Assembly (NCBI GenBank): GCA_963797605.1
Contig: CAWCPX010000009.1
Coordinates: 867,950-931,949, forward strand
Length of the DNA stretch: 64,000 bases
Direction: 5' to 3'
From: an uncultured Actinomycetota bacterium
GTDB lineage: Bacteria; Actinomycetota; Actinomycetes; Mycobacteriales; Micromonosporaceae
The notes beneath the pieces are model-generated. The model saw nothing but the letters and a program-made list of their open reading frames with translations, made no database searches and was not told where the DNA came from. The position numbers were made by a program, and so were the translations under genes. Positions 2,998-47,368 of this stretch are shown here, piece after piece (within the stretch, counting starts at the first letter, position 1; each line of letters starts with the position of its first letter).

Positions 2998-4143
2998 GTG
3001 ACCTTTGAGGAGACAGACATGTTGAAGCACGAAGCATTTGACGCGGACGCGCCCGAGTTGCGCCTGCTGGCCGATGTTCGGCGCGAGCACGCCGAACCCG
3101 ACGCGGACACCATCGACCGCCTGCGGCACGCCGTCGCGCACGCCACCCGGCATCCGGCGTCGTCGCCCCCTCGGACGCGCCGGCCGTGGCGGGTCGGCAT
3201 CCCGATCGCCGTCACCGCGTCGGTCGTCGCCGCGTTGGCGGTGGCGGGCACGCTGACGACCGATCACCAGGGAGAGCGGCCGAGGGTCGCCACGACCGCG
3301 CGCTCACCGCTGGTCTCTGCCGGCGATGACGCCCAGGTGATGATGACGCTCGCTGCCCGGGTGACGCTGACGGCGCCGGCGCTCGCCCCCCACCCGGGGC
3401 AGTACGTCTATCGGCGTACCACGTCGAGGGACCTCGGCGCCTACACGTTCGCCGCCGGCACCGTCAACGTCTTCACCTCGCAGCAGCGGCAGGATTGGCT
3501 GGACCCGCGTCGGGGCCTGGTCAGCGCGCGCTATATCGCGACCGAGCGCATCGTCGGCCCGGTCACACCGCAGGACGCGCGGCTCGCCGCCGAGGTCGGT
3601 TTCGACCTGCACGCCGCGCCGAAAACGATCGACTCGGATCACCCGGAACCCGGAGGGAAGGGCGAGGCGTCGTCGCCTCCGCGGGCGCCGGGCATGCGTA
3701 ACCCGACGCCGGCGTATCTGAACAGTCTGCCGACCGATCCGGTGTCGCTTCTGGCCACGATCCGCCGTGCCGCCAGCGCCGAGGGAAACGTGAAATGGTC
3801 GACCGACAAGACGGCGTTCGACATGGTGCGCGACCTGATCTCGTGGGGCGATCCGCTGCTGTCGCCGCAGTTGCGTGCGGCGCTCTACCGGGCGGTCGCC
3901 CTGATGCCGGGCGTCCGCCGGGTGCCGGGCGCGACGCGGACGGACGACGGGCACACGGGCGTGGCGATCGGTTTCGCGGAAGGAAACGTACGCGAGGAGA
4001 TCGTTTTTGATCCGGTGAGCTTGCGGCCGCTCGGTGCCCGTGACGTCACGCTGACGGCGGCCGATGGCGTGCCCGCCGGCACCGTCATCTCGACGTCGTC
4101 GTTCACGTTCGCGGTCGTGGACGGCGTCGGCCAAACCAGCTGA
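2998..4143 (+). CDS. putative anti-sigma / sigma-associated membrane protein
   Basis: Begins 10 nt after the ECF sigma stop. One TM segment (IPIAVTASVVAALAVAGTL) follows a short cytoplasmic N-terminus, with a large extracytoplasmic domain after it. The start may instead be ATG 3019. Confidence 0.6.
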   Translation: MTFEETDMLKHEAFDADAPELRLLADVRREHAEPDADTIDRLRHAVAHATRHPASSPPRTRRPWRVGIPIAVTASVVAALAVAGTLTTDHQGERPRVATTARSPLVSAGDDAQVMMTLAARVTLTAPALAPHPGQYVYRRTTSRDLGAYTFAAGTVNVFTSQQRQDWLDPRRGLVSARYIATERIVGPVTPQDARLAAEVGFDLHAAPKTIDSDHPEPGGKGEASSPPRAPGMRNPTPAYLNSLPTDPVSLLATIRRAASAEGNVKWSTDKTAFDMVRDLISWGDPLLSPQLRAALYRAVALMPGVRRVPGATRTDDGHTGVAIGFAEGNVREEIVFDPVSLRPLGARDVTLTAADGVPAGTVISTSSFTFAVVDGVGQTS

Positions 4144-18777: not shown

Positions 18778-19476
18778 ATGACCACGGCACATCCCCTCGA
18801 CAATCCGGCACAGTCGTCACTGCTCGGCCCGCACGCTCACTTCGCCGAGCGCCACGGTCAGGCCCTGCGGTATCCGACCGACGTGTCACCGTTCGTCGCG
18901 CTCGCCGACGACGCCGACGAGACGGCGTGGCATGACGTCGCAGTCCTGTTCGGCCCGGGTGCGGTCGTGCCCGTCGCCGGCATCACCGCTCCGCCGCCCG
19001 CCGACTGGGAGGTGGTCCTGGATCTCCCCGGCGTACAGATGATCGACGCGTCCGTGGCGTCCGCGCCCGACCCGGAGGCGGTCCGGCTCGGCCCGGCCGA
19101 TGTTCCGGAGATGCTCGACCTGGTGGCGCGTACGCAACCGGGTCCGTTCCTGCCCCGCACGATCGAACTCGGCACCTATCTGGGAATCCGTCGCGGCGGC
19201 ACGCTCGTGGCCATGGCCGGCGAGCGGCTGCATCCCCCGGGCTGGACGGAGATCAGCGCCGTCTGCACCGACCCGGCGTTCCGGGGGCAGGGCCTCGCGT
19301 CCCGGCTCGTGCTCGCGATCGCGGCCGGCATCCGCGCCCGCGACGAAACTCCGTTCCTGCACACCGCCGCGCACAACACGAACGCGATCCGGCTCTACGA
19401 ATCGCTCGGCTTCGCGCTTCGCCGCACCCTGACGTTCCTGGCTGCCCGGGTGCCCGCAGCGGCACCCGTCGGCTAA
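18778..19476 (+). CDS. GNAT family N-acetyltransferase
   Basis: Track ORF 18763..19476, ATG 18778. Acetyl-CoA motif FRGQGLASRLVLAI ... NTNAIRLYESLGF. Confidence 0.8.
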   Translation: MTTAHPLDNPAQSSLLGPHAHFAERHGQALRYPTDVSPFVALADDADETAWHDVAVLFGPGAVVPVAGITAPPPADWEVVLDLPGVQMIDASVASAPDPEAVRLGPADVPEMLDLVARTQPGPFLPRTIELGTYLGIRRGGTLVAMAGERLHPPGWTEISAVCTDPAFRGQGLASRLVLAIAAGIRARDETPFLHTAAHNTNAIRLYESLGFALRRTLTFLAARVPAAAPVG

Positions 19477-19558
19477 ACCTGTCCAGTCGATCATGGTGAT
19501 CGGCAGGACAGGGCTTGATCGGGCATCGCTCGGCTGATCCCATGAAGGAGAAGACATC

Positions 19559-20464
19559 GTGACCAGATACGCCAGCCCGGTCGACACCGAGACCTACGGC
19601 GTCTACACGATCAAACGTGTTCCCGGCGACGAACGGCCCCTCTACCGCTTCACCGGCCGGATCACGGCAGACGGCTCCAGCGGCTTCCGGGCCGAGCCGG
19701 GCCGCTACCACATCTACGCGGGATGGTTCTGCCCGTGGGCCCAGCGCACCACGATCGAGCGCTCGCTGCACGGGCTGGAAGACATCGTCTCGGTGTCCTA
19801 TGTCGACGACAAGCGAGATGCCCGCGGGTGGGCGTTTCGTGAGCACCACGGCGCCGATCCGGTCAACGGGTTCGAGTTGCTGCGCGAGGCGTACAACGCG
19901 ACCGAACCCGACTTCGACGGGCACGTCTCGGTGCCGACGTTGTGGGATCGGCAGACCGGGCGGATCGTCAGCAACAACTTCACGACGATCGGCATCGACC
20001 TGGCGACCCAGTTCGGCGCGTGGAGCAACGGCGCCGACACCTACCCGGCGGCGTCCCGGGACGACATCGAAGAGCTGGACAGGTGGCTCGGTCCGGCCGT
20101 GAACCAGGGCGTGAACGCCGCCGCCGGCGAGGAGGGGGCGCGGAAGCGTCTGCTGGGCGCCTTCGCCGACCTCGACGAGCGCCTGGCCACCCGCCGCTAT
20201 CTGCTCGGCGACCGGTTGACCGAGGCCGACGTGCGACTGTACGTGAGTCTCGCCCGCTACGACGCGCAGGCGAACGCGCACCGCACGATCAACGGTGGTC
20301 TGGCGGAGTTCCCGCACCTGTGGGCGTACGCCCGCGACCTGTACGCCGAGCCCGCGTTCCGCGACACCACCGACTTCACCACGTTCACGGCCGCCGGCGC
20401 GACCGTGCCCGACTGGGACGCACCGACCGATCGGCCGACACTCACGTTCGCGAATGTGTCTTGA
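19559..20464 (+). CDS. glutathione S-transferase, Xi class (glutathionyl-hydroquinone reductase-like)
   Basis: GTG behind GAAGGAG. The CPWAQR active-site motif and the tyrosine-rich pattern resemble the YqjG/ECM4 family. Confidence 0.8.
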   Translation: MTRYASPVDTETYGVYTIKRVPGDERPLYRFTGRITADGSSGFRAEPGRYHIYAGWFCPWAQRTTIERSLHGLEDIVSVSYVDDKRDARGWAFREHHGADPVNGFELLREAYNATEPDFDGHVSVPTLWDRQTGRIVSNNFTTIGIDLATQFGAWSNGADTYPAASRDDIEELDRWLGPAVNQGVNAAAGEEGARKRLLGAFADLDERLATRRYLLGDRLTEADVRLYVSLARYDAQANAHRTINGGLAEFPHLWAYARDLYAEPAFRDTTDFTTFTAAGATVPDWDAPTDRPTLTFANVS

Positions 20465-20465
20465 T

Positions 20466-20488
20466 ATCCCTATCACGCCGATAGGGAT
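20466..20488. promoter_or_regulatory. perfect palindrome ATCCCTATC-N5-GATAGGGAT (candidate operator)
   Basis: 9-bp arms. It lies 2 nt after the GST stop and 55 nt before the small ORF at 20543. It is related to the sites at 47649-47671 and 32255-32277. Confidence 0.5.
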
Positions 20489-20542
20489 TGCGCGTCAACA
20501 GGTGAAACCGTTACGCTCAGGGCAGGTCAGGAGGTAGTGACC

Positions 20543-20671
20543 GTGCATACACGAACCGATCTCGTGCTCGCCGCGCCACGGCGCCGACTGCCCTTCTCCC
20601 GTCGCCACATCGATCTGCGGCGCACCGCCAGCGCTCTGTGTCGGGGCTTCGACGCCCCGGTCCTCGGCTGA
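20543..20671 (+). CDS. candidate leader peptide (42 aa) of LLM operon 1
   Basis: AGGAGG sits 8 nt before GTG. VHTRTDLVLAAPRRRLPFSRRHIDLRRTASALCRGFDAPVLG*. The peptide is a paralog of the uORF at 47513..47650. Confidence 0.4.
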   Translation: MHTRTDLVLAAPRRRLPFSRRHIDLRRTASALCRGFDAPVLG

Positions 20672-20765
20672 ACCAAGCGACCGACACGCAGCTCCGCCCC
20701 CGCATAGCCCGGGGTCCGCGGGCACGTTTGGTGTGCCCATCGAGCGATTGAGGAGCGACCTCACC

Positions 20766-21980
20766 ATGCCCACCCGAACCGGACCACTGCACCTCTCCGT
20801 CGCCCTCGACGGCACCGGCTGGCACCCCGCGGCCTGGCGCGAGCCGCAGGCCCGGCCCGGCCGAGCTGTTCACCGCCGCGTACTGGCTCGACCTCGTCCC
20901 AGGAGGCCGAGCGCGGTCTGCTCGACTTCGTCACCATCGAAGACTCCCTCGGCCTGCAGTCGTCGCGCTACACCGAGCCCGACGACCGCACCGACCAGGT
21001 TCGGGGACGCCTCGACGCGGTCCTCATCGCGGCCCGGGTCGCGCCGCTGACCCACCACATCGGCCTGGTCCCGACCGCCGTCGTCACCCACACCGAGCCG
21101 TTCCACGTCGCCAAGGCCATCGCCACGCTCGACTACGTCAGCACCGGCCGGGCCGGCGTGCGCGTACAGGTATCGGCGCGGCCCGGCGAGGCGGCCCATT
21201 TCGGCCGGCGCGACGTTCCCGACGATCCGGATCGAGGACCGCGACGATCCGGTCGTGCAGCGGCTTGTCGGCGAGCTGTTCGACGAGGCCGCCGACTACG
21301 TCGAGGTGGTGCGGCGGCTCTGGGACAGCTGGGAGGACGACGCCGAGATCCGCGACGTCCGCCACCGGCCGGTTCGTCGATCGCGACAAGCTGCACTACA
21401 TCGACTTCGAGGGCCGAAACTTCCGCGTCAGGGGACCGTCGATCACGCCGCGCCCACCACAGGGCCAGCCGCTCGTCACCGCGCTCGGCCACCAGAGCGT
21501 GCCGTACCAGCTGATCGGCCGGGTCAGCCGACGTCGTCTTCATCACGCCGCGCGACGCCGACCACGCCCGGGCGATCGTCGCCGAGATCCGGGCCGCGCA
21601 GGCCGCGGCCGGTCGGGCCGAGGAGCCGGTCCACGTCTTCGGCGACCTCGTCGTCTTCCTCGACGAGACGCGCGACCGGCGCGACCGACCGCAAGGCCCG
21701 GCTCGACGACCTGGCCGGCGGCGACTACACCAGCGACGCCACGGTCTTCGCCGGCACCGCCGCCCAGCTCGCCGACCTGCTCGAGGACTGGCAGCAAGCC
21801 GGCGTCAGCGGCTACCGGCTGCGCCCCGGCACGGTTCCACACGACCTGGAGGCCATCACCCGCGGGCTCGTGCCGGAACTGCAGCGCCGGGGCGTGTTCC
21901 GCCGCGCCTACGAAGCCGACACCCTGCGCGGCCTGCTCGGCCTGTCCCGCCCCGCCAACCGCTACGCGGCCGCGGCCTGA
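20766..21980 (+). pseudogene. LLM-class (luciferase-like) flavin-dependent oxidoreductase with about six frame changes
   Basis: Seven frame segments join into one continuous LLM protein: MPTRTGPLHLSVALDGTGWHPAAWREPQARP / AELFTAAYWLDLV / QEAERGLLDFVTIEDSLGL...HFGRRDVP / TIRIEDRDDPVVQRLVGELFDEAADYVEVVRRLWDSWEDDAEIRDV / ATGRFVDRDKLHYIDFEGRNFRVRGPSITPRPPQGQP... / DVVFITPRDADHARAIV... / ATGATDRKARLDDLAGG...RPANRYAAAA*. Confidence 0.75.
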
Positions 21981-22052
21981 ATTCGGAGCCCCTCGAGCCT
22001 GTCAGCGAACCATGAACAGCATGGCCGCGCCCTGCGAAGCGGGACGGACATG
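21978..22052 (+). repeat. intercistronic element, copy 1
   Basis: ...GAGCCTGTCAGCGAACCATGAACAGCATGGCCGCGCCCTGCGAAGCGGGACGGACATG runs from the LLM1 stop to the LLM2 start. It is homologous to the tandem copies at 23418-23547. Confidence 0.7.
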
Positions 22053-23420
22053 AGCAAACCGCAAGCAGATCCACCTCGGCGCGCACTTCCCCGGCGTCAA
22101 CAACACCACCGTCTGGAGCGATCCCGAGCGCCGGCAGCCAGATCGAGTTCAGCTCGTTCCGACACTTCGCCCAGACCGCCGAGCGCGGCAAGTTCGACTT
22201 CTTCTTCCTGGCCGAGGGCCTGCGCCTGCGCGAGCAGGGCGGGCTGATCTACGACCTCGACGTGGTCGGCCGGCCGGACACGTTCACGGTGCTGGCCGCG
22301 CTCGCCGCCGTCACCGATCAGCTCGGCCTGGCGGGCACGATCAACTCGACCTTCAACGAGCCCTACGAGGTGGCCCGCCAGTTCGCGAGCCTCGACCACC
22401 TCTCGGGCGGCCGGGCCGCGTGGAACGTCGTCACGTCGTGGGACGCCTTCACCGGCGAGAACTTCCGCCGCGGCGGATTCCTGGCACAGGACCACCGATA
22501 CGCGCGAGCCGAGCAGTTCATGCGTACGACCTGGGAGCTGTTCGACTCGTGGCGCGGCGACGAGATCGTGGCCGACAAGGATTCCGGGCGTCTTCCTCGG
22601 CGACGCGGATGCCGGCCGGTTCCGGCATCACGACGACCACTTCGACATTTCCGGCCAGTTCAACGTGCCGCGCAGCCCACAGGGGCGCCCGGCCATCTTC
22701 CAGGCCGGCGACTCGGACGAGGGCCGGGACTTCGCGGCGGCGACCGCGGACGCGATCTTCAGCCGGCACAGCACGTTCGACGCCGGGCAGGCGTTCTACG
22801 CGGACGTGAAGGGTCGGCTGGCACGGTTCGGCCGTACCCATGACCAGCTCTTGATCTTGCCAGCGGCGACGTTCGTGCTCGGCGACACCGATGCCGAGGC
22901 GCAGGAGCTGGCGCACCAGGTGCGGCTGCAGCAGGTCAGCGGGCAGACCGCGATCAAGTTCCTGGAGCAGCTGTGGAACCGCGACCTGTCCGCCTACGAC
23001 CCGGACGGCCCGCTGCCGGAGATCGATCCCGACACCGGTGAGCACACCGTCGCGCGGGGCCGGGCGAGCGTGCGGATGTACCGGGACCCGGTCGCGACCG
23101 CGAACGAATGGCGCGAACGGGCGGCGGCGGAGAAATGGTCAATTCGCGAGCTGATCATCGAGGTCACGGGCCGGCAATCGTTCATCGGCTCGGCGGCCAC
23201 CGTGGCCGAGACGATCGACAGGTTCGTGCAGAAGGACGCAAGCGACGGCTTCATCCTGGTGCCCCACATCACGCCGGGCGGCTTGGACATCTTCGTCGAC
23301 ACGGTGGTGCCGCTGCTGCAGGAACGCGGCTCGTTCCGCACCGAGTACGAGGGCAGCACGCTGCGGGAGAACCTCGGTCTGGCGCCACACGGGGCGGTTG
23401 TCGAACAGGTGGCAGCGTGA
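22050..23420 (+). pseudogene. NtaA/SnaA/DszA-family FMN-dependent monooxygenase with three frame changes
   Basis: MSK / RKQIHLGAHFPGVNNTTVWSDPE / AGSQIEFSSFRHFAQTAERGKFDFFFLAEGLRLREQ...WRGDEIVADKDSG / VFLGDADAGRFRHHDDHFDISGQFNVPRSPQGRPAIFQAGDSDEG...VVEQVAA*. The breaks lie near 22059, 22130 and 22589, and each is explained by one extra C. Confidence 0.8.
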
Positions 23421-23547
23421 GCGAGCTTGTCGGAGCGAACCATGAGACAGCATGGCCGCGCCCTGCGAAGCGGGGGCGGACATGAGCGAGCTTGTCGGAG
23501 CGAACCATGAGACAGCATGGCCGCGTCCTGCGAAGCGGAGGCGGGCA
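23418..23547 (+). repeat. intercistronic element, tandem copies 2 and 3 (65-bp period)
   Basis: TGAGCGAGCTTGTCGGAGCGAACCATGAGACAGCATGGCCGCG(C/T)CCTGCGAAGCGG(G/A)GGCGG(A/G)CA occurs twice (23418-23482, 23483-23547) with 3 mismatches by eye. Confidence 0.85.
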
Positions 23548-24677
23548 TGACCACAACACCACTCGGGGTGCTCGACCTCGTACCGATCTCGACCGGGTCG
23601 ACCGCGGCGGAGGCTCTGCGCAACAGCATCGACCTCGCGCAGCAGACCGAACGATTCGGGTACGCCCGCTACTGGTTCGCCGAGCACCACCTCAACCCCG
23701 GTGTGGCCGGCACCTCCCCCGCCGTTGTGCTCGCCCTGACCGCGGCCGCCACCTCGACGATCCGGCTCGGGTCGGGTGCGGTGCAACTCGGCCACCGCAC
23801 CGCGCTGTCGACCGTGGAAGAGTTCGGCCTGCTCGACGCGCTGCACCCGGGGCGCCTGGATCTCGGTCTCGGCCGCTCTGGTGGGCGGCCGCCCGAACCA
23901 ACACGCGAGCCGACGCTCGCCGGCCCGAGCCAGGTCATCAACGGGTACACCGCGAACGGGCTGCGCATCCCGGCGAAGTTCTCCTTCGAAGGGCTGCTCA
24001 AGTCGCCGCGGTTCGCCTTGCAGAAAGGACTCCTGGCGCAGCCGCACGCGGAGCCACAGAACTACACCGAGCAGATCGGCGACATCCTGGCGCTCATCGC
24101 GGGCACCTACCGCAACGCCGACGGCGTCGAGGCGCACGTGATCCCGGGCGAGCACGCCGACCTGCAGATCTGGATCCTCGGCAGCAGCGGCGGTGATAGC
24201 GCGAACGTGGCCGGTCACAACGGGCTGCGTTTCGCAGCGAACTACCACGTCAGCCCGGCTACCGTGGTCGAGGCCGCCGAGGGGTACCGGGCCGCGTTCC
24301 GGCCGTCGGCGGTGCTCGACCGGAGGTACATCAGCGTGTCCGCCGATGTCGTGGTCGCTGACGACGAGGCGACCGCACGCGAACTCGCCACGGGCTACGG
24401 TCTATGGGTGCGCAGCATCCGCAGCGGCTCCGGCGCGATCCAGTTCCCGACGCCGGCCGAGGCTCGTCGACACGTGTGGACGGCCGAGGACCGCGCCCTG
24501 GTCGACGACCGGGTCGAGACGCAGTTCGTGGGCACCGCCGCGCACGTCGCCGATCAGCTCGAGACGTTGCGCGACGCGACCGGCGCCGACGAGCTGATCG
24601 TCACGACGATCACCCACGACCACGCCGACCGGGTCCGGTCCTATGAGCTGCTGGCTCAGGAATGGCACCGGCGATGA
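23547..24677 (+). CDS. LLM-class flavin-dependent oxidoreductase (intact)
   Basis: Track ORF 23517..24677, ATG 23547 behind GGAGG. MTTTPLGVLDLVPI...ERFGYARYWFAEHH is a typical luciferase-like N-terminus. Confidence 0.85.
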   Translation: MTTTPLGVLDLVPISTGSTAAEALRNSIDLAQQTERFGYARYWFAEHHLNPGVAGTSPAVVLALTAAATSTIRLGSGAVQLGHRTALSTVEEFGLLDALHPGRLDLGLGRSGGRPPEPTREPTLAGPSQVINGYTANGLRIPAKFSFEGLLKSPRFALQKGLLAQPHAEPQNYTEQIGDILALIAGTYRNADGVEAHVIPGEHADLQIWILGSSGGDSANVAGHNGLRFAANYHVSPATVVEAAEGYRAAFRPSAVLDRRYISVSADVVVADDEATARELATGYGLWVRSIRSGSGAIQFPTPAEARRHVWTAEDRALVDDRVETQFVGTAAHVADQLETLRDATGADELIVTTITHDHADRVRSYELLAQEWHRR

Positions 24678-24696
24678 TCGTTATGAGGCGAGCGCG

Positions 24697-25200
24697 ATGA
24701 ACATGCGACCGGCGTTGCAACCGGAGGAATTGCGGCGGGTATTCGCCGCGTTCCCGACGGGCGTGACCGCTATCGCCGCGCTCGTTGACGGCGTCCCGGT
24801 CGGGCTCGCGGCGAGTTCGTTCGTCTCGGTGTCGCTCGACCCGCCGATGGTGTCGGTGTGCGTCGCTCACACGTCGACCACGTGGCCCCGGTTGCGGCAG
24901 GTGCGGCGGCTGGGTGTCAGCGTGTTCGGCGCCCATCAGGAGGAGGCGTGCCGTCGCTTCAGCGCCCGCGACGGCGACCGGTTCGCGTCTCTGCGGTGGC
25001 GCTTGGGTGAGGGCGACGGCATCGTGATCGACGGGTCGAGCGCGTGGCTCGATTGCAGCATCGAGCAGGAGATCCCCGCCGGCGACCACGACATCGTGCT
25101 GCTGCGCGTACACAACCTCGACGCCGATCCGACGGTGGCACCGTTGGTCTTCCACGGCAGCCAGTTCCGGCAGCTCCAACCGCACGACCGCGCGGCATGA
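24697..25200 (+). CDS. flavin reductase family protein (NAD(P)H:FMN oxidoreductase)
   Basis: ATG 24697. FAAFPTGVTAIAALVDGVPVGLAASSFVSVSLDPPMVSVCV is the HpaC/NtaB-type flavin reductase domain. Confidence 0.85.
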   Translation: MNMRPALQPEELRRVFAAFPTGVTAIAALVDGVPVGLAASSFVSVSLDPPMVSVCVAHTSTTWPRLRQVRRLGVSVFGAHQEEACRRFSARDGDRFASLRWRLGEGDGIVIDGSSAWLDCSIEQEIPAGDHDIVLLRVHNLDADPTVAPLVFHGSQFRQLQPHDRAA

Positions 25201-25505
25201 TGAACGAGCACCGGCGGCGCCCGATTTGTCGCGTGTCGACACGCTGATCCTCGGATCTCCGACGCCACGGTCACCGGAACCCCGCGGAACGACACTGACG
25301 TCGGAAATCCGAGCCTGTCGGCGTGTCATGAGAGCGTGTCGCGTGGCGTTCTGTGCGCGCTGAACGGAGCCCGGGCATCACGCGCTCGGAGTTAGCTCGG
25401 GTCATCGTCGCAGCGACCGTGCCGCTGCCTGATCCCCAGAGTTCCCGAGTGATCGCGGACGCCGGCGACGACCGGCCACCGTCGCTGGTCGACTAGGTTC
25501 GGATC

Positions 25506-25901
25506 ATGACAACGCTTCCCGACGACCTCGTCACCCTGTTACAGGGTCAGGCCCTGGGCTTCATCGCGACCGTGATGCCGGACGGATCGCCGCAGGTCAC
25601 ACAGGTGTGGGTCGACACCGACGGTGAGCACGTGGTGGTCAACACGGTGCGCACGCATCAGAAGGCCAGGAACATCGCCCGCGATCCCCGGGTCGCGATC
25701 AGCATCGCCGACCCGACCGATCCGACGCGCTACTGGGCCGTCCGCGGCACCGTCGTCAACTCGACGACCGAGGGCGGCGCGGAGCACATCGAAGCGCTGT
25801 CGCATCGCTACACCGGCCGGCCGTACCCGTGGTGGGGTGGCCCCGATCAGGTCCGTGTCATCGTGACGATCAAACCCGAGTCGATCGCCGGACAGCACTG
25901 A
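25506..25901 (+). CDS. PPOX-class (pyridoxamine 5'-phosphate oxidase-like) F420/FMN-binding protein
   Basis: 131 aa. GFIATVMPDGSPQVTQVWV...KARNIARDPRVAISI is the split-barrel pattern. Confidence 0.75.
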   Translation: MTTLPDDLVTLLQGQALGFIATVMPDGSPQVTQVWVDTDGEHVVVNTVRTHQKARNIARDPRVAISIADPTDPTRYWAVRGTVVNSTTEGGAEHIEALSHRYTGRPYPWWGGPDQVRVIVTIKPESIAGQH

Positions 25902-26020
25902 ACGGGTCGCCGTCACCCGAGGGCGGGTAACGTCGCGGACCGGCAATCACCGGTGGGGCGCGGTCCGGCCGACGCGGACGGGCAGCGCGGACGCGACCGG
26001 TCCTGCTAGCGTGCGCAGCT

Positions 26021-28432: not shown

Positions 28433-29529
28433 TCAAGCCGAGACGAGCACGCGATGAGCGAGTTCCTGGCGGACGAGCGGAAGGACGTACCGGGCGTAGT
28501 CGATGGCGTCGTTCAGCGGGTCGTACCCCCGGATGGACAGCAGCTCGCAGCCGATGTCGACGTAGTCGAGCAGCGCCTTCGCGACGGTTTCGTAGCTGCC
28601 GACGAGCGCGGTCGAACTCCCGGCTGCGTTGGTCGCGGTGACCAGCGGCGTCCACAGCGCCCGGTCGTGCAGTTCGCCCCGGGCCGCGACCTCGAGAAGC
28701 CGCTGCGAGCCGACGTTTTGCGGCCGGCCGCCGGCGAGCGGGACGCGTCCGGCCAGGACGGTGTCCGCGTTACGTTGGACCTGGCCGAGGATCGCGTGCG
28801 CCTTCTCCCAGGCCAGTTCGTCGGTGGCGGCGACGATCGGACGGAACGACACCCAGATCCGGGGGCGGCCCGCCCGGCGGCGTCGGCGTACGCGTTGACC
28901 GACGCGATCTGTTCGGCCGTCTCCTTCAGCGGCTCGCCCCATAGCCCGAAGATGTCGCCCTGCTCGCCGCCGACCCGGTACGCCTCCTCCGACGAACCGC
29001 CGACCGAGATCGGGATGCTCCCGCCGTACGGCTTGATGTCGGTCTGGAAGTCCTCGAACGTGTAGTAGACTGCCCTCGTGACTGATCGGTCCGTCCGCCG
29101 ACCAGACCTTACGCAGGATCTGGATGTACTCGTCGGAACGCTCGTAGCGCTTGCTCCTTGGTCGAGTAGTCGCCCTCACGGCGCTGCTCGGCGTCGCTGC
29201 CACCGGAGATGATGTGGATGCCGAGCCGGCCGCGGCCGATCTGGTCGATGGTCGGCGAACGTCTTGGCCGCCTGCGTCGGGTAGAGGAAGCCGGGCCGGT
29301 GGGCCAGCATCGGCTTGACGCGCTCGCTGTTGTTGACCACGAATTGCGCGAGCTGGTTCGCGTCGACACTGGCCGAACCGTAGGCGACGAGCGTGTAGTC
29401 GAAGCCGCCGTCATCGAGCGCGTGCACGAATTTGCGGGTGTAGTCGACGTCGAAGGATCCGTGCCGGCGACCACCGGAGGCCTCGGTCGTCGGGGTCGTG
29501 TGGGTCGCGCTGATGAATTCAACAGGCAT
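28433..29529 (-). pseudogene. SsuD-like LLM alkanesulfonate-type monooxygenase with four frame changes
   Basis: AGGAG-N6-ATG 29529. MPVEFISATHTT...PTQAAKTFA / TIDQIGRGRLGIHIISGGSDAEQRREGDYSTKEQ / RYERSDEYIQILRKVWSADGPISHEGS / YYTFEDFQTDIKPYGGSIPISVGGSSEEAYRVGGEQGDIFGLWGEPLKE...AAGRA / PRIWVSFRPIVAATDELAWEKA...LAHRVLVSA*. Confidence 0.75.
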
Positions 29530-29540
29530 GATCTTCTCCT

Positions 29541-31391
29541 CTACAGCGATGCCGGGCCGGTGGCGGAGGGCGCCGGGCCGGTGGCGACAGGCCTTTCGGG
29601 ATCGGACGACCACGCGGACCAGGACCCGGGGAACAGTGCGGCGTCGATCCCGGCGATGGCCAGCGCGGCGATCTGATGGGAGGCGGTCACGCCGGAGCCG
29701 CAGTAGACCCCGACCGTGCTTCCGGGCGTCACCCCCAGGGCAGCGAAACGGGCCCGGAGGTGCTCGGCCGTCCGGAAAGCGCCATCCGGGCCGAGGTTCT
29801 CGACGGTCGGTGCGCTGATCGCGGCCGGAATGTGCCCGGCGTGCGGATCGATCGGCTCGATGTCACCCCGGTAGCGCTCGGCGGCCCGGGCGTCGAGGAG
29901 CACCCCGTCGCGTGCGAGCTCGGCGGCCTCGTCGGCGGACAGCGTCGGAAGATGCCCCGCCGCCAGCTCGATGTCACCGGCGGCCCGCTCCGGCGACCCG
30001 GACTCGATATCGAATCCGGCTTCCGACCAGGCACCGAACGCGCCGTCGAGGATGCGTACGTCACTCACGCCGGCCCACCGCAGCAGCCACCAGGCGCGTG
30101 CCGCCGACAGACCGTTCACGTTGTCGTAGACCACGACCGGCCGCCCACGGGTCAGCCCCCAGCCGCGCGCCGCCTCCTGGAGCCGGTCGATGGACGGCAG
30201 CGGATGCCGGCCCGCTAGCGGTTCGGCGGGATCGGCCAGTTCAGTCTCCAGGTCGACGTACGCCGCGCCGGGAATATGACCGTCGTCGAAGTGCCCGCGG
30301 CCGCGCGGGTCACCGAGGGCCCACCGCACATCCAGCAGCAGGGGCGGGTTCGCGCCGGCGAGTTCGTCGCGGAGCGTCTTGATGTCGACGAGAACGGCCA
30401 GCGTCGGCAGCGTACGCCGGAGGTCGGCATCGTCCAGGCCACCGGCGGCTGTTCCGTCCCGCGCTACCCGAGCGGCGCGAGCCTGCACCGCAGCGTTCAG
30501 GGGCGCTCGTGCGCCGTAGAGGCGTGCCAGCAGCGCGATTTCCCCGTTGAGGAAGTCGGATTCGTGCGAGCCGGAGCGGGCCAGGCTCTGCCACGTCGAG
30601 CTACCGCCGCGGTCGTGGCCGGCGATCGGCTGGGTGGCGATACGCGTCAGGTCGAGGTCTCCGTCGGCGAACGGCTGGGCCACGTCGATGCCGGCGGCTG
30701 CGAGCACCGCCGAGGCCTCGGCCCGCAGCGCGGCGGCAGCGGCATCGCGCAGCTCACTGGGCTGATAGAGCGCGTCGAGGTTGTGGGCGAGGTTGCCGAG
30801 CAGCTTGCCGGCCTTCCAGCGGCCGATGTCCGGCACGACCTGCACGGCGTACCGCGCCGCGCGCAGATCCGTCGCGACCTGCTCGATCCGGGGATCGGTG
30901 CCGTGCGGTGCGGCGCCCAGGAAGATCGCCCCGATGTCCGGCGCGGCCGGCGATACGACCTCGCCCGGCGTCACGTAGGACGCGGGGATCAGCACGGCGG
31001 CGTCGAATACGGTCGCGAACCGGCGCAGCGCCGGGCGGACGTTGTCCAGGCCGTTCTGGAGGAGCACGATCGGCAGCAGTTCGGCGGCCGAGGCATCGGT
31101 GCCCTTAACCGGTTGCCAGGCCCACTCCGCGACGGTCGCCTCGGTGTCCTGTGACTTCGTCGCCAGCACCAGGACATCGCCGGCGCGCAGGGCGATGTCC
31201 TGCGGGCCACCCGCGACCGGCAGCACCACGCGCTCGGTGCCTGCCGCGGTGACGTACTCCAACCCGCGCTCGCGCAGCAGTTCGAGATGCCTGCCCCGGG
31301 CGATCAGCACGACCTCCCGTCCGGCCCGGTGCAACTCCGCGGCCGTGGTCCCACCGACCGCGCCCGCGCCGATCACGATGTACCTGGTCAT
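29541..31391 (-). CDS. fusion protein: ketopantoate-reductase-like (ApbA/PanE) domain + tandem-rhodanese sulfurtransferase
   Basis: N-terminus MTRYIVIGAGAVGGTTAAEL... with the ApbA C-terminal region (STWQSLARSGSHESDFLNGEI). The C-terminal 280 aa carries two rhodanese domains with the active-site loop YCGSGVTAS. Single uninterrupted 616-aa ORF. Confidence 0.8.
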   Translation of the reverse strand: MTRYIVIGAGAVGGTTAAELHRAGREVVLIARGRHLELLRERGLEYVTAAGTERVVLPVAGGPQDIALRAGDVLVLATKSQDTEATVAEWAWQPVKGTDASAAELLPIVLLQNGLDNVRPALRRFATVFDAAVLIPASYVTPGEVVSPAAPDIGAIFLGAAPHGTDPRIEQVATDLRAARYAVQVVPDIGRWKAGKLLGNLAHNLDALYQPSELRDAAAAALRAEASAVLAAAGIDVAQPFADGDLDLTRIATQPIAGHDRGGSSTWQSLARSGSHESDFLNGEIALLARLYGARAPLNAAVQARAARVARDGTAAGGLDDADLRRTLPTLAVLVDIKTLRDELAGANPPLLLDVRWALGDPRGRGHFDDGHIPGAAYVDLETELADPAEPLAGRHPLPSIDRLQEAARGWGLTRGRPVVVYDNVNGLSAARAWWLLRWAGVSDVRILDGAFGAWSEAGFDIESGSPERAAGDIELAAGHLPTLSADEAAELARDGVLLDARAAERYRGDIEPIDPHAGHIPAAISAPTVENLGPDGAFRTAEHLRARFAALGVTPGSTVGVYCGSGVTASHQIAALAIAGIDAALFPGSWSAWSSDPERPVATGPAPSATGPASL

Positions 31392-34490: not shown

Positions 34491-35355
34491 TTAGATGCGG
34501 ATGCGCCGCCGGATGAAGGCACCCAGCAGGATCGCGGCGAAGGACACGATCATCAATACGAAGGTGATCGCGTACGCGGAGTTGTAGTCGAGACTGTTCT
34601 CCACGAGGTTGCCCACCCGTAGCGGCGCGGTCTCGGTCTGACCTTCGATGTTGTTCGAGACAACCAGGACGGCGCCGTATTCACCGATGCATCGGGCCAC
34701 GCTCAACACGACGCCGTACGTCAGTGCCACGCGCACCGTCGGCAGCGTGATCCGGCGCAGTCGCACGGCGGCACTGGCACCGAGGGTCGCCGCGGCCTGC
34801 TCCTGCTCCGTGCCGGCCTGTTCCAGCACCGGCACCAGAGCTCGCGACGACCAGTGGCAGCGATACGAACGCCGTCGCGATGATCATGCCGGGTTTCGCG
34901 CCGATCATCACCACGCCGTGACGTTCGAGGAAGGGACCGAACCAGCCGGTCGGCCCGTACACGAGGATCAGCGCGAGCCCGACGACGATCGGCGAGACCG
35001 CGACCGGCAGGTCCACGAACGCGTTCAGCAGGCCGTGGCCCCAGAATCGGTAACGGGCCAGCAGCAGCGCGATGGCGACACCGAGCACCGTGTTGATGGC
35101 GACCGCGGAGAGCGCGACGATCGCGGTCATCTCGAACGCGTGGCCGGACTCGGGCGTGCTCAGCGCCGACCAGAAGGCGTGGAGGCCGGGCTGGAAGGTG
35201 CGGTACAGGATGACGATCACCGGGACGAGGACGAGCAGGCCGACGTACAGGACGACGAGGCTCTGCAGGCCGAGCGTGCCCGGGCGCAACCGTCTGCGCC
35301 GACCAACGGCGGTCGATACCGGTGGCGGCGCGATCTGGACTCCGGTGTCAGCCAC
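34491..35355 (-). pseudogene. cysW: sulfate ABC transporter permease CysW, one frame change
   Basis: GTG 35355 overlaps the cysT stop (GTGGCTGA). ...GMIIATAFVSLPLVV breaks near 34840-34850 and resumes as (R)ELVPVLEQAGTEQEQAAATLGASAAVRLRRITLP...FIRRRIRI*. Length 865 nt (3n+1). Confidence 0.8.
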
Positions 35356-46151: not shown

Positions 46152-47368
46152 GCCCGGGCCGCCGTGGCGTATTCGGCGTATCGGGTGCCGTAGTTGCCCA
46201 GGTTGTCGGCCTGCAGCGGGCCGCGCTGGCCGGTGGCTTTGCGGTGGGCGAGTTCCTGGCGGACCAGTGGCAGCACGTAGCGGCCGTAGTCGACGGCGTC
46301 GGCGAGGGTGTCGTAGCCGCGGATCGAGACCAGGGACGCCCCGCGGTCGACGTAGTCGAGGATCGCCGCGGCGACCGTCTCCGGCGAGCCGACGAGCGCG
46401 GTCGAGGCGCCAGCCGGCGTTGGTCGCCGCGGCGGTCTTCGTCCACAGTGCCCGGTCGTAGAGGTCCGATCGGGCGGCGAATGCGAGCGCGCGCTGCGAG
46501 CCGACGTTCTGCGGTGTGCCCTGGCGGTAGCGCTGCGCCCCGTACCCGGCGGCCTGGAAGGTCTCGGCGATCCTCGCGACGTATTCGTGCGCCTTCTCCC
46601 ACGCGAGTGCGTCGGTCTGGGCGATGATCGGGCGGAAGGTGACCCAGATGCGGGGCAGCGTGGTGCGCCCGGCCGCCCGCGCGATGGCGTGGACGCGGTC
46701 GATCTCGGCACGCAGGTCGTCCAGCGGTTCGCCCCAGAAGCTGAAGATGTCGGCCTGGGCGCCGCCGACCTGGAACGCCTCGTCGGACTGCCCGCCGATC
46801 GAGATCGGGATCGGGCCCGCGAACGGCGCGAATCCCGGTCCGAAGTCGTCGAACTTGTAGAACTCGCCGTCGTGGCTGAACGGAGCCGGCTCGGTCCACG
46901 ACCTGCGCAGGATGTCGATGTACTCGACGGTGCGGGCGTACCGTCGCTATTTGGGCAGGTAGTCGCCCTGGCGGGCCTGCTCGGCGTCGCTGCCGCCGGA
47001 GATGAGGTGCACGACCGCGCGGCCCTCGGTCAGCTGGTCGAGGGTGGCGAGCTTCTGCGCGCCGACCGTCGGGAAGGTCGTGTTCGGTCGCAGGGCGACG
47101 ATCGGGCCGGATCCGTTCGGTCAGGTGGCCGACGCGCGCTGGCGACGACGAACGAGTCGGCGGTGTTGGAGCCGTAGGGAAGCAGCGTGTAGTCGAACCG
47201 CCCGTCTTCCAGGGCTCGGACGTATCGGCGGAAGAACTGCAGGTCGATGCCTCGGGTCGGGATCGGTTCGAGTTCGGTCGACGGGTTCAGGTGCGAGAGG
47301 CTAATGAACTCGACTTCGGGCGACGCGGCCGGGGGGATCGCCTGGTCGAACGTGGGGGTGGCGGTCAT
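46148..47368 (-). pseudogene. SsuD/SfnG-like LLM monooxygenase with three frame changes and an in-frame TAG
   Basis: MTATPTFDQAIPPAASPEVEFISLSHLN...SFVVASA / VGHLTERIR / PIVALRPNTTFPTVGAQKLATLDQLTEGRAVVHLISGGSDAEQARQGDYLPK-TAG-RRYARTVEYIDILRRSW...WTKTAAATNAG / GASTALVGSPETVAAAILDYV...YATAARA*. Confidence 0.75.

Follow-up and report, generated by a model that had tools for sequence, protein, structure and literature searches.

The nine frame changes that interrupt two adjacent luciferase-like monooxygenase (LLM) genes, here called LLM1 and LLM2, are, judged from the sequence, very probably uncorrected errors of the assembly consensus, each a single inserted nucleotide, and no real biological feature. 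The breaks exist, their signature recurs throughout the genome, and it hits genes that cannot be pseudogenes. The analyzed window is the whole stretch of 64,000 nucleotides (G000:C9:867950-931949; positions below are those of the window unless a contig is given). It belongs to an assembly, G000, of 5.67 Mb in 17 contigs with approximately 69% GC. The host is a high-GC actinobacterium near Micromonospora.

Frame changes in LLM1 and LLM2

The segment 20740-23430 was compared with intact orthologs from two other genomes by a frameshift-aware dynamic-programming alignment. These orthologs comprise ORFs of 374 and 452 aa at locus L002 and of 405 and about 463 aa at locus L003. Global DNA alignment served to compare the window with L117, another intact locus, which is syntenic. 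LLM1 (20766..21980, plus strand) encodes a luciferase-like monooxygenase of approximately 400 aa on read-through, a relative of the NtaA/DmoA family. It contains six single-nucleotide surpluses and thus six +1 shifts, both in the alignment with L002 and L003 and in that with L117. LLM2 (22050..23420, plus strand) encodes a probable FMN-dependent monooxygenase of the NtaA/DmoA family with approximately 450 aa on read-through. The alignment with L002 and L003 revealed two single-nucleotide surpluses and a third frame change at the N-terminus of this gene, and three +1 shifts are counted here.

The first shift in LLM1 is located at 20854..20862, where a G or a C is surplus in gcccggcccggccgag, and the second at 20899..20902, with a surplus base in gtcccagg; both were placed by the alignments with L002/L003 and L117. 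The third (21211..21233) falls within a length-variable stretch in which the gap relative to L117 amounts to 13 nt, i.e. 12+1. One surplus base each was found at 21357..21360 (in gacgtccgcc), at 21514..21526 (in gatcggccgggtca) and at 21668..21674 (in gacgcgcgacc, a CG-repeat context) by the ortholog alignments and by the Viterbi scan described below. In LLM2 the surplus bases are located at 22122..22129 (in gatcccgagcgcc; alignments with L002/L003 and L117) and at 22589..22592 (in ccgggcgtcttcc; ortholog alignments and Viterbi scan). The N-terminal shift of LLM2 at 22059..22062 (aaaccgCaagcag) is either +1 or -2. The frame changes at approximately 22060, after the ATG at 22050 and ahead of the conserved KQIHL motif. 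A 2-nt deletion describes this shift equally well, since the window has aaa ccg c aag cag in place of the KPRKQ of the orthologs. All nine shifts are given for the plus strand. Most of the sites are short C/G runs of 2-3 nt or CG repeats rather than long homopolymers.

The nine changes that the sequence-only reading had called, six in LLM1 and three in LLM2, are present in the deposited sequence, all within approximately 10 nt of the positions given there. The comparison with the orthologous locus, which it had suggested as a check, confirmed the single-base surpluses in the window against three intact loci. It had further taken each of the LLM2 insertions for an extra C. This is compatible with the sequence, although the inserted base is not uniquely determinable.

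Apart from these surpluses both coding sequences are undamaged. The remaining gaps within them in the global DNA alignment with L117 are all multiples of three. The corrected reading of LLM1 and LLM2, obtained by skipping the single bases, contains no in-frame stop codon, in agreement with the earlier remark that stops have not accumulated between the breaks. Across 100% of its length the LLM2 read-through is 88% identical to numerous intact NtaA/DmoA proteins of 452-458 aa, and in a search of 5.8 billion proteins its best homolog was likewise 88% identical.

Essential genes and the genome-wide distribution of frame switches

The rpoB model matched a single locus in G000, in seven pieces of differing frames. 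As reference we used the RpoB of Micromonospora, the nearest relative found. The alignment (94% identity, 1143 residues) revealed exactly four +1 insertions in the G000 gene (C, C, C and G), with neither stops nor other damage. In the same operon rplL carries two +1 insertions and rplJ one, giving seven for rplJ-rplL-rpoB (G000:C5:1188371-1193200). The first approximately 600 codons of rpoC are clean. Since a viable organism is impossible with broken rpoB, rplL and rplJ, the single-base insertions in these genes are an assembly artefact. The breaks in the LLM genes are indistinguishable from these lesions in type, in inserted base and in context (short C/G runs and CG repeats). The operon is also a handy test locus for re-polishing G000.

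The sequence-only reading had pointed out that each LLM gene returns to its original frame at the end. This was indeed seen in LLM1 and LLM2, but it is no rule: with four shifts in rpoB, two in rplL and one in rplJ, none of these genes returns. Return to frame was rejected as a signal, and its chance for two genes is approximately 1 in 9.

In order to cover the complete assembly a Viterbi segmentation with plus-coding, minus-coding and non-coding states was used, the codon log-odds of which were trained on the long ORFs of G000 itself. An event was defined as a frame change on the same strand with a gap of at most 40 nt and with the upstream frame open for more than 45 nt. The scan of 5.67 Mb detected 2153 frame switches (380/Mb). 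Among these, 1590 were of the +1-type and 563 of the -1-type, a +1 share of 74% that rose to 82% among the sharply localised events. As a control, 400 kb from a same-family genome that is complete in one contig went through the identical procedure and yielded 4 events (10/Mb), evenly split between the types. The event density of G000 is about 38 times that of this complete relative. When the control sequence was spiked with random indels, insertions and deletions were typed correctly with a sensitivity of 49-60%. As the scan finds only this fraction of spiked indels, the true indel load of G000 is probably roughly 3500-4000.

Further measures of the assembly were recorded. G000 contains 149 long ORFs per Mb, about half of the 268/Mb in the control, and its CheckM completeness is 80.9% despite only 17 contigs. 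In 29 kb of coding DNA from 23 orthologous genes, sampled by comparison with a reference, 7 shifts were found, five of them of the +1-type; four of the seven sit in one DEAD-box helicase gene. Several of the same-genus genomes G001-G011 also combine few contigs (3-20) with a completeness of just 75-94%, and several of them may be burdened by similar indels.

The events were over-dispersed, with a variance-to-mean ratio of 3.1 for 2089 bins of 2.7 kb. No event was found in 61% of the bins, and at least four were detected in 213 of the 2089 (approximately 10%), where a Poisson distribution predicts 43. The scan detected four events at the LLM1-LLM2 locus, the event cluster of which is not exceptional for G000. 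With increasing GC the density rose approximately 6-fold, from 0.41 per bin at a GC of 0.62-0.66 to 2.63 per bin above 0.72. LLM1 has a GC of 0.72-0.75. The +1 fraction was 70-86% at all cluster sizes. Nine +1 shifts out of nine, which have a probability of approximately 0.17 at a rate of 82%, are unremarkable because the +1 share is high regardless of cluster size.

Explanations for the frame changes

For an assembly artefact one would look for lesions in essential genes, an excess over a clean relative and an otherwise undamaged read-through, and all three were observed. The preference of the earlier reading for an artefact over pseudogenes is strongly supported by the +1 C/G signature in rpoB, rplL and rplJ and by the 38-fold genome-wide excess. 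The errors would mostly be surplus C or G residues spread over the whole 17-contig assembly, about three quarters of them of the +1-type. They would form gene-sized clusters that are commoner at high GC. Their probable origin, we infer, is a long-read or hybrid consensus that received too little polishing.

That indels fragment genes in long-read assemblies is documented (PMC12007338, PMC8011154). The long-read assemblies and MAGs considered for Kastor (PMC12007338) and Homopolish (PMC8011154) resemble G000 in their thousands of 1-nt indels and in genes split into adjacent frames. They also resemble it in the involvement of essential genes, in a low marker-gene completeness with few contigs and in a corrected reading that is undamaged. 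In contrast to them, the errors of G000 are strongly clustered and linked to GC. Nanopore assemblies exhibit a deletion-dominated profile located in longer homopolymers (PMC12007338, Table 1), whereas G000 is insertion-biased by approximately 3:1 and affected at C/G, in short runs and CG repeats. This insertion bias and the shortness of the runs at most of the nine sites speak against the artefact, and the bias suggests that another chemistry or pipeline was used. The gene-sized clustering may, speculatively, go back to a dropout of short-read coverage where GC is high, to long-read bridges within a hybrid assembly, to locally low depth or to a mixture of strains.

It is very unlikely that LLM1 and LLM2 are real, very recent pseudogenes in which nine genuine insertions led to the loss of a sulfonate/NTA-type oxidation cluster. 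Such pseudogenes would agree with the presence of the breaks in the deposited sequence, with the nature of the LLM genes as dispensable accessory genes and with two more broken LLM genes in the window. Gene decay, however, would leave a mixture of nonsense changes, deletions and drift and would be confined to dispensable genes. Here we found +1 insertions only, and essential genes are affected. Nine insertions with no nonsense change and no out-of-frame deletion, in genes with 88% identity to intact homologs, are unlike decay. The same type of lesion occurs in rpoB, rplL and rplJ, for which pseudogene status is impossible, and the lesion density exceeds that of the complete relative by the factor of about 38 given above. 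Moreover, a gene is dead after its first frameshift, and eight further events that are insertions alone would require insertions, specifically, to arise at a very high rate. Mycobacterium leprae is an example of genome-wide pseudogenisation. Its genome is likewise actinobacterial and contains many broken genes. Unlike it, G000 has broken essential genes, its lesions are almost exclusively 1-nt indels, and stops, larger deletions and sequence drift are missing.

Also very unlikely is a real heterogeneity of the sample as the origin of the gene-sized, GC-linked clusters of +1 C/G insertions. True indel differences in a mixture of closely related strains would then have merged into a chimeric consensus, or a subset of the cells would be subject to a genuine insertion-prone mutational process. 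A clonal organism with exactly the deposited sequence would not be viable, because rpoB, rplJ and rplL carry insertions; heterogeneity within the population as the trigger is compatible with these insertions.

The sequence-only reading had proposed a specific cause, namely that short-read polishing failed at the LLM genes through multimapping on paralogs and that raw long-read consensus was left only there. In its favour, most frame breaks of the window lie in LLM genes. The neighbouring long genes named as clean are in fact uninterrupted, with Viterbi segments of 1.5-1.9 kb, but at least two further LLM genes of the window are frameshifted. An SsuD-like LLM gene on the minus strand (28460-29574) is distributed over at least four frames, and its pieces match PF00296 positions 9-90, 149-216 and 222-312; its breaks belong to the same artefact class as those of LLM1 and LLM2. 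Another LLM gene on the minus strand (46157-47368) is split across frames, with pieces matching PF00296 positions 76-118 and 124-283. Outside the LLM family, an ABC-transporter permease gene on the minus strand (34494-35280) has a candidate frameshift. The Viterbi frame switch is located at 34839-34842, and just the 3' piece of the gene matches BPD_transp_1 (model positions 76-183). A small gene at about 51.9 kb likewise contains a candidate frame switch.

The genome does have many LLM-family loci, which speaks for multimapping. A first tblastn search for LLM paralogs at an E-value of 1e-6 returned the locus itself only. Distant members were found with a relaxed threshold and iterated phmmer, and the latter led to 45 LLM-like loci with a total of 58 kb. 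The closest in-genome paralogs of LLM1 and LLM2 share at most approximately 35% protein identity. At the DNA level, no matches of the two genes elsewhere in G000 were found except for a 66-nt intergenic repeat. These relatives are far too distant for multimapping. The event density of the LLM-like loci was 0.395/kb, close to the 0.380/kb of the whole genome, with 33 of the 45 loci free of events. An enrichment specific for the LLM family, apparent inside the window, was rejected on these densities. The single-locus gene rpoB and the DEAD-box helicase gene are affected as well, with four shifts each. Failed polishing by multimapping is thus extremely unlikely. Local GC predicts the events better than paralogy, and we read the concentration of breaks in the LLM genes of the window as a local coincidence of clusters.

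A biological decoding of the extra bases by programmed +1 ribosomal frameshifting, quadruplet decoding or transcriptional slippage would suit nine shifts in one direction and two genes back in frame by their end, but its probability is practically nil: the contexts of LLM1/LLM2, rpoB, rplL and rplJ have no common motif, the orthologs at L002, L003 and L117 are unshifted at every LLM1/LLM2 site, the -1-type makes up about a quarter of the events in the genome, rpoB, rplL and rplJ do not come back into frame, and thousands of recoding sites are not known from any bacterium. An Rfam scan of 19000-26000 matched no RNA family and therefore gave no known recoding element in this region.

The monooxygenase cluster and consequences for its interpretation

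With the surplus bases skipped, LLM1 and LLM2 would be ordinary, functional-looking members of a putative two-component flavin-dependent monooxygenase cluster. The order of genes in the window is GST-like, LLM1, LLM2 (NtaA/DmoA), LLM3 (MsnO8) and flavin reductase, all on the plus strand. The intact GST-like gene (19559..20464; GST_C_2 and GST_N_2) is located immediately upstream of LLM1, in the same order as at L117. LLM3 (23517..24677) is an intact ORF of 386 aa that belongs to the MsnO8 family of LLM oxidoreductases (TIGR03558, 303 bits; cut-off 167). The flavin reductase gene of the same cluster (24643..25200) is also intact (PF01613, 118.6 bits). L117, which is part of a 1.4-Mb metagenomic contig, contains the order GST, LLM, LLM, LLM and FMN reductase with every gene intact. 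Its FMN reductase belongs to PF03358, a family differing from the PF01613 flavin reductase of the window.

The LLM2 ortholog (L002:2611-3969) reached 404.8 bits against TIGR03860 (NtaA/DmoA), the cut-off of which is 279.7. The longest unbroken piece of LLM2 in the window, a C-terminal one, gave 207.8 bits for model positions 201-422, a score that refers to this partial sequence only. The intact LLM1 ortholog reached 229.8 bits and stays below the TIGR03860 cut-off, which is the criterion for full-length members, but it is a clear member of Pfam PF00296 (75.3 bits; cut-off 27.9). The cluster is comparable to the NtaA/DmoA systems with their partner flavin reductase: LLM2 is 88% identical to proteins so named, its ortholog exceeds the cut-off, and a flavin reductase gene lies within the cluster, as in two-component systems. 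Unlike these systems, the LLM1 of the window is shorter and falls below the subfamily cut-off.

DNA matches to the LLM1-LLM2 locus were sought in 11 same-genus genomes and none was found, but matches of 73-76% occur in three genomes of other genera, one from the same family and two from other families of the order. Because of this distribution the cluster looks like an accessory region, possibly acquired horizontally. For the intact LLM3 protein the protein records searched contained no entry. Searches with the LLM2 and LLM3 proteins found no conspecific sequence and hence no second assembly of this species.

The cluster is also accompanied by a GC-rich intergenic repeat of approximately 66 nt, which runs from GAGCGAGCTTGTCGGAGCGAACCATGAGACAGCATGGCCGCGCCCTGCGAAGCGGG to GGACATG. 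Copies are located at 21985-22052, 23419-23484 and 23485-23550 in the window, and further ones at G000:C9:286756-286951 and G000:C5:1077050-1077310. We obtained 68 blastn hits in G000, 41 of them nearly full length, and the repeat is often present in tandem with 2-4 copies. Two or three hairpins are predicted for it (-27 kcal/mol). Both LLM2 and LLM3 take their ATG from the 3' end of the repeat. At L117 the repeat is missing between LLM1 and LLM2, and the two genes overlap there by 4 nt. Short matches to the repeat were found in same-genus genomes, and no Rfam family matched it.

The main value of these findings is a quality warning. Until G000 has been polished, any call of pseudogenes, gene loss, split genes or recoding on it is unsafe. 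The same caution may extend to other genomes of the genus with few contigs and low completeness. Those who develop polishing, or annotation that allows for frameshifts, for long-read assemblies of high-GC actinobacteria may profit from knowing this insertion-biased, GC-linked and clustered error profile. For the organism itself, a metabolic reconstruction would wrongly score it as being without the flavin-dependent monooxygenase cluster.
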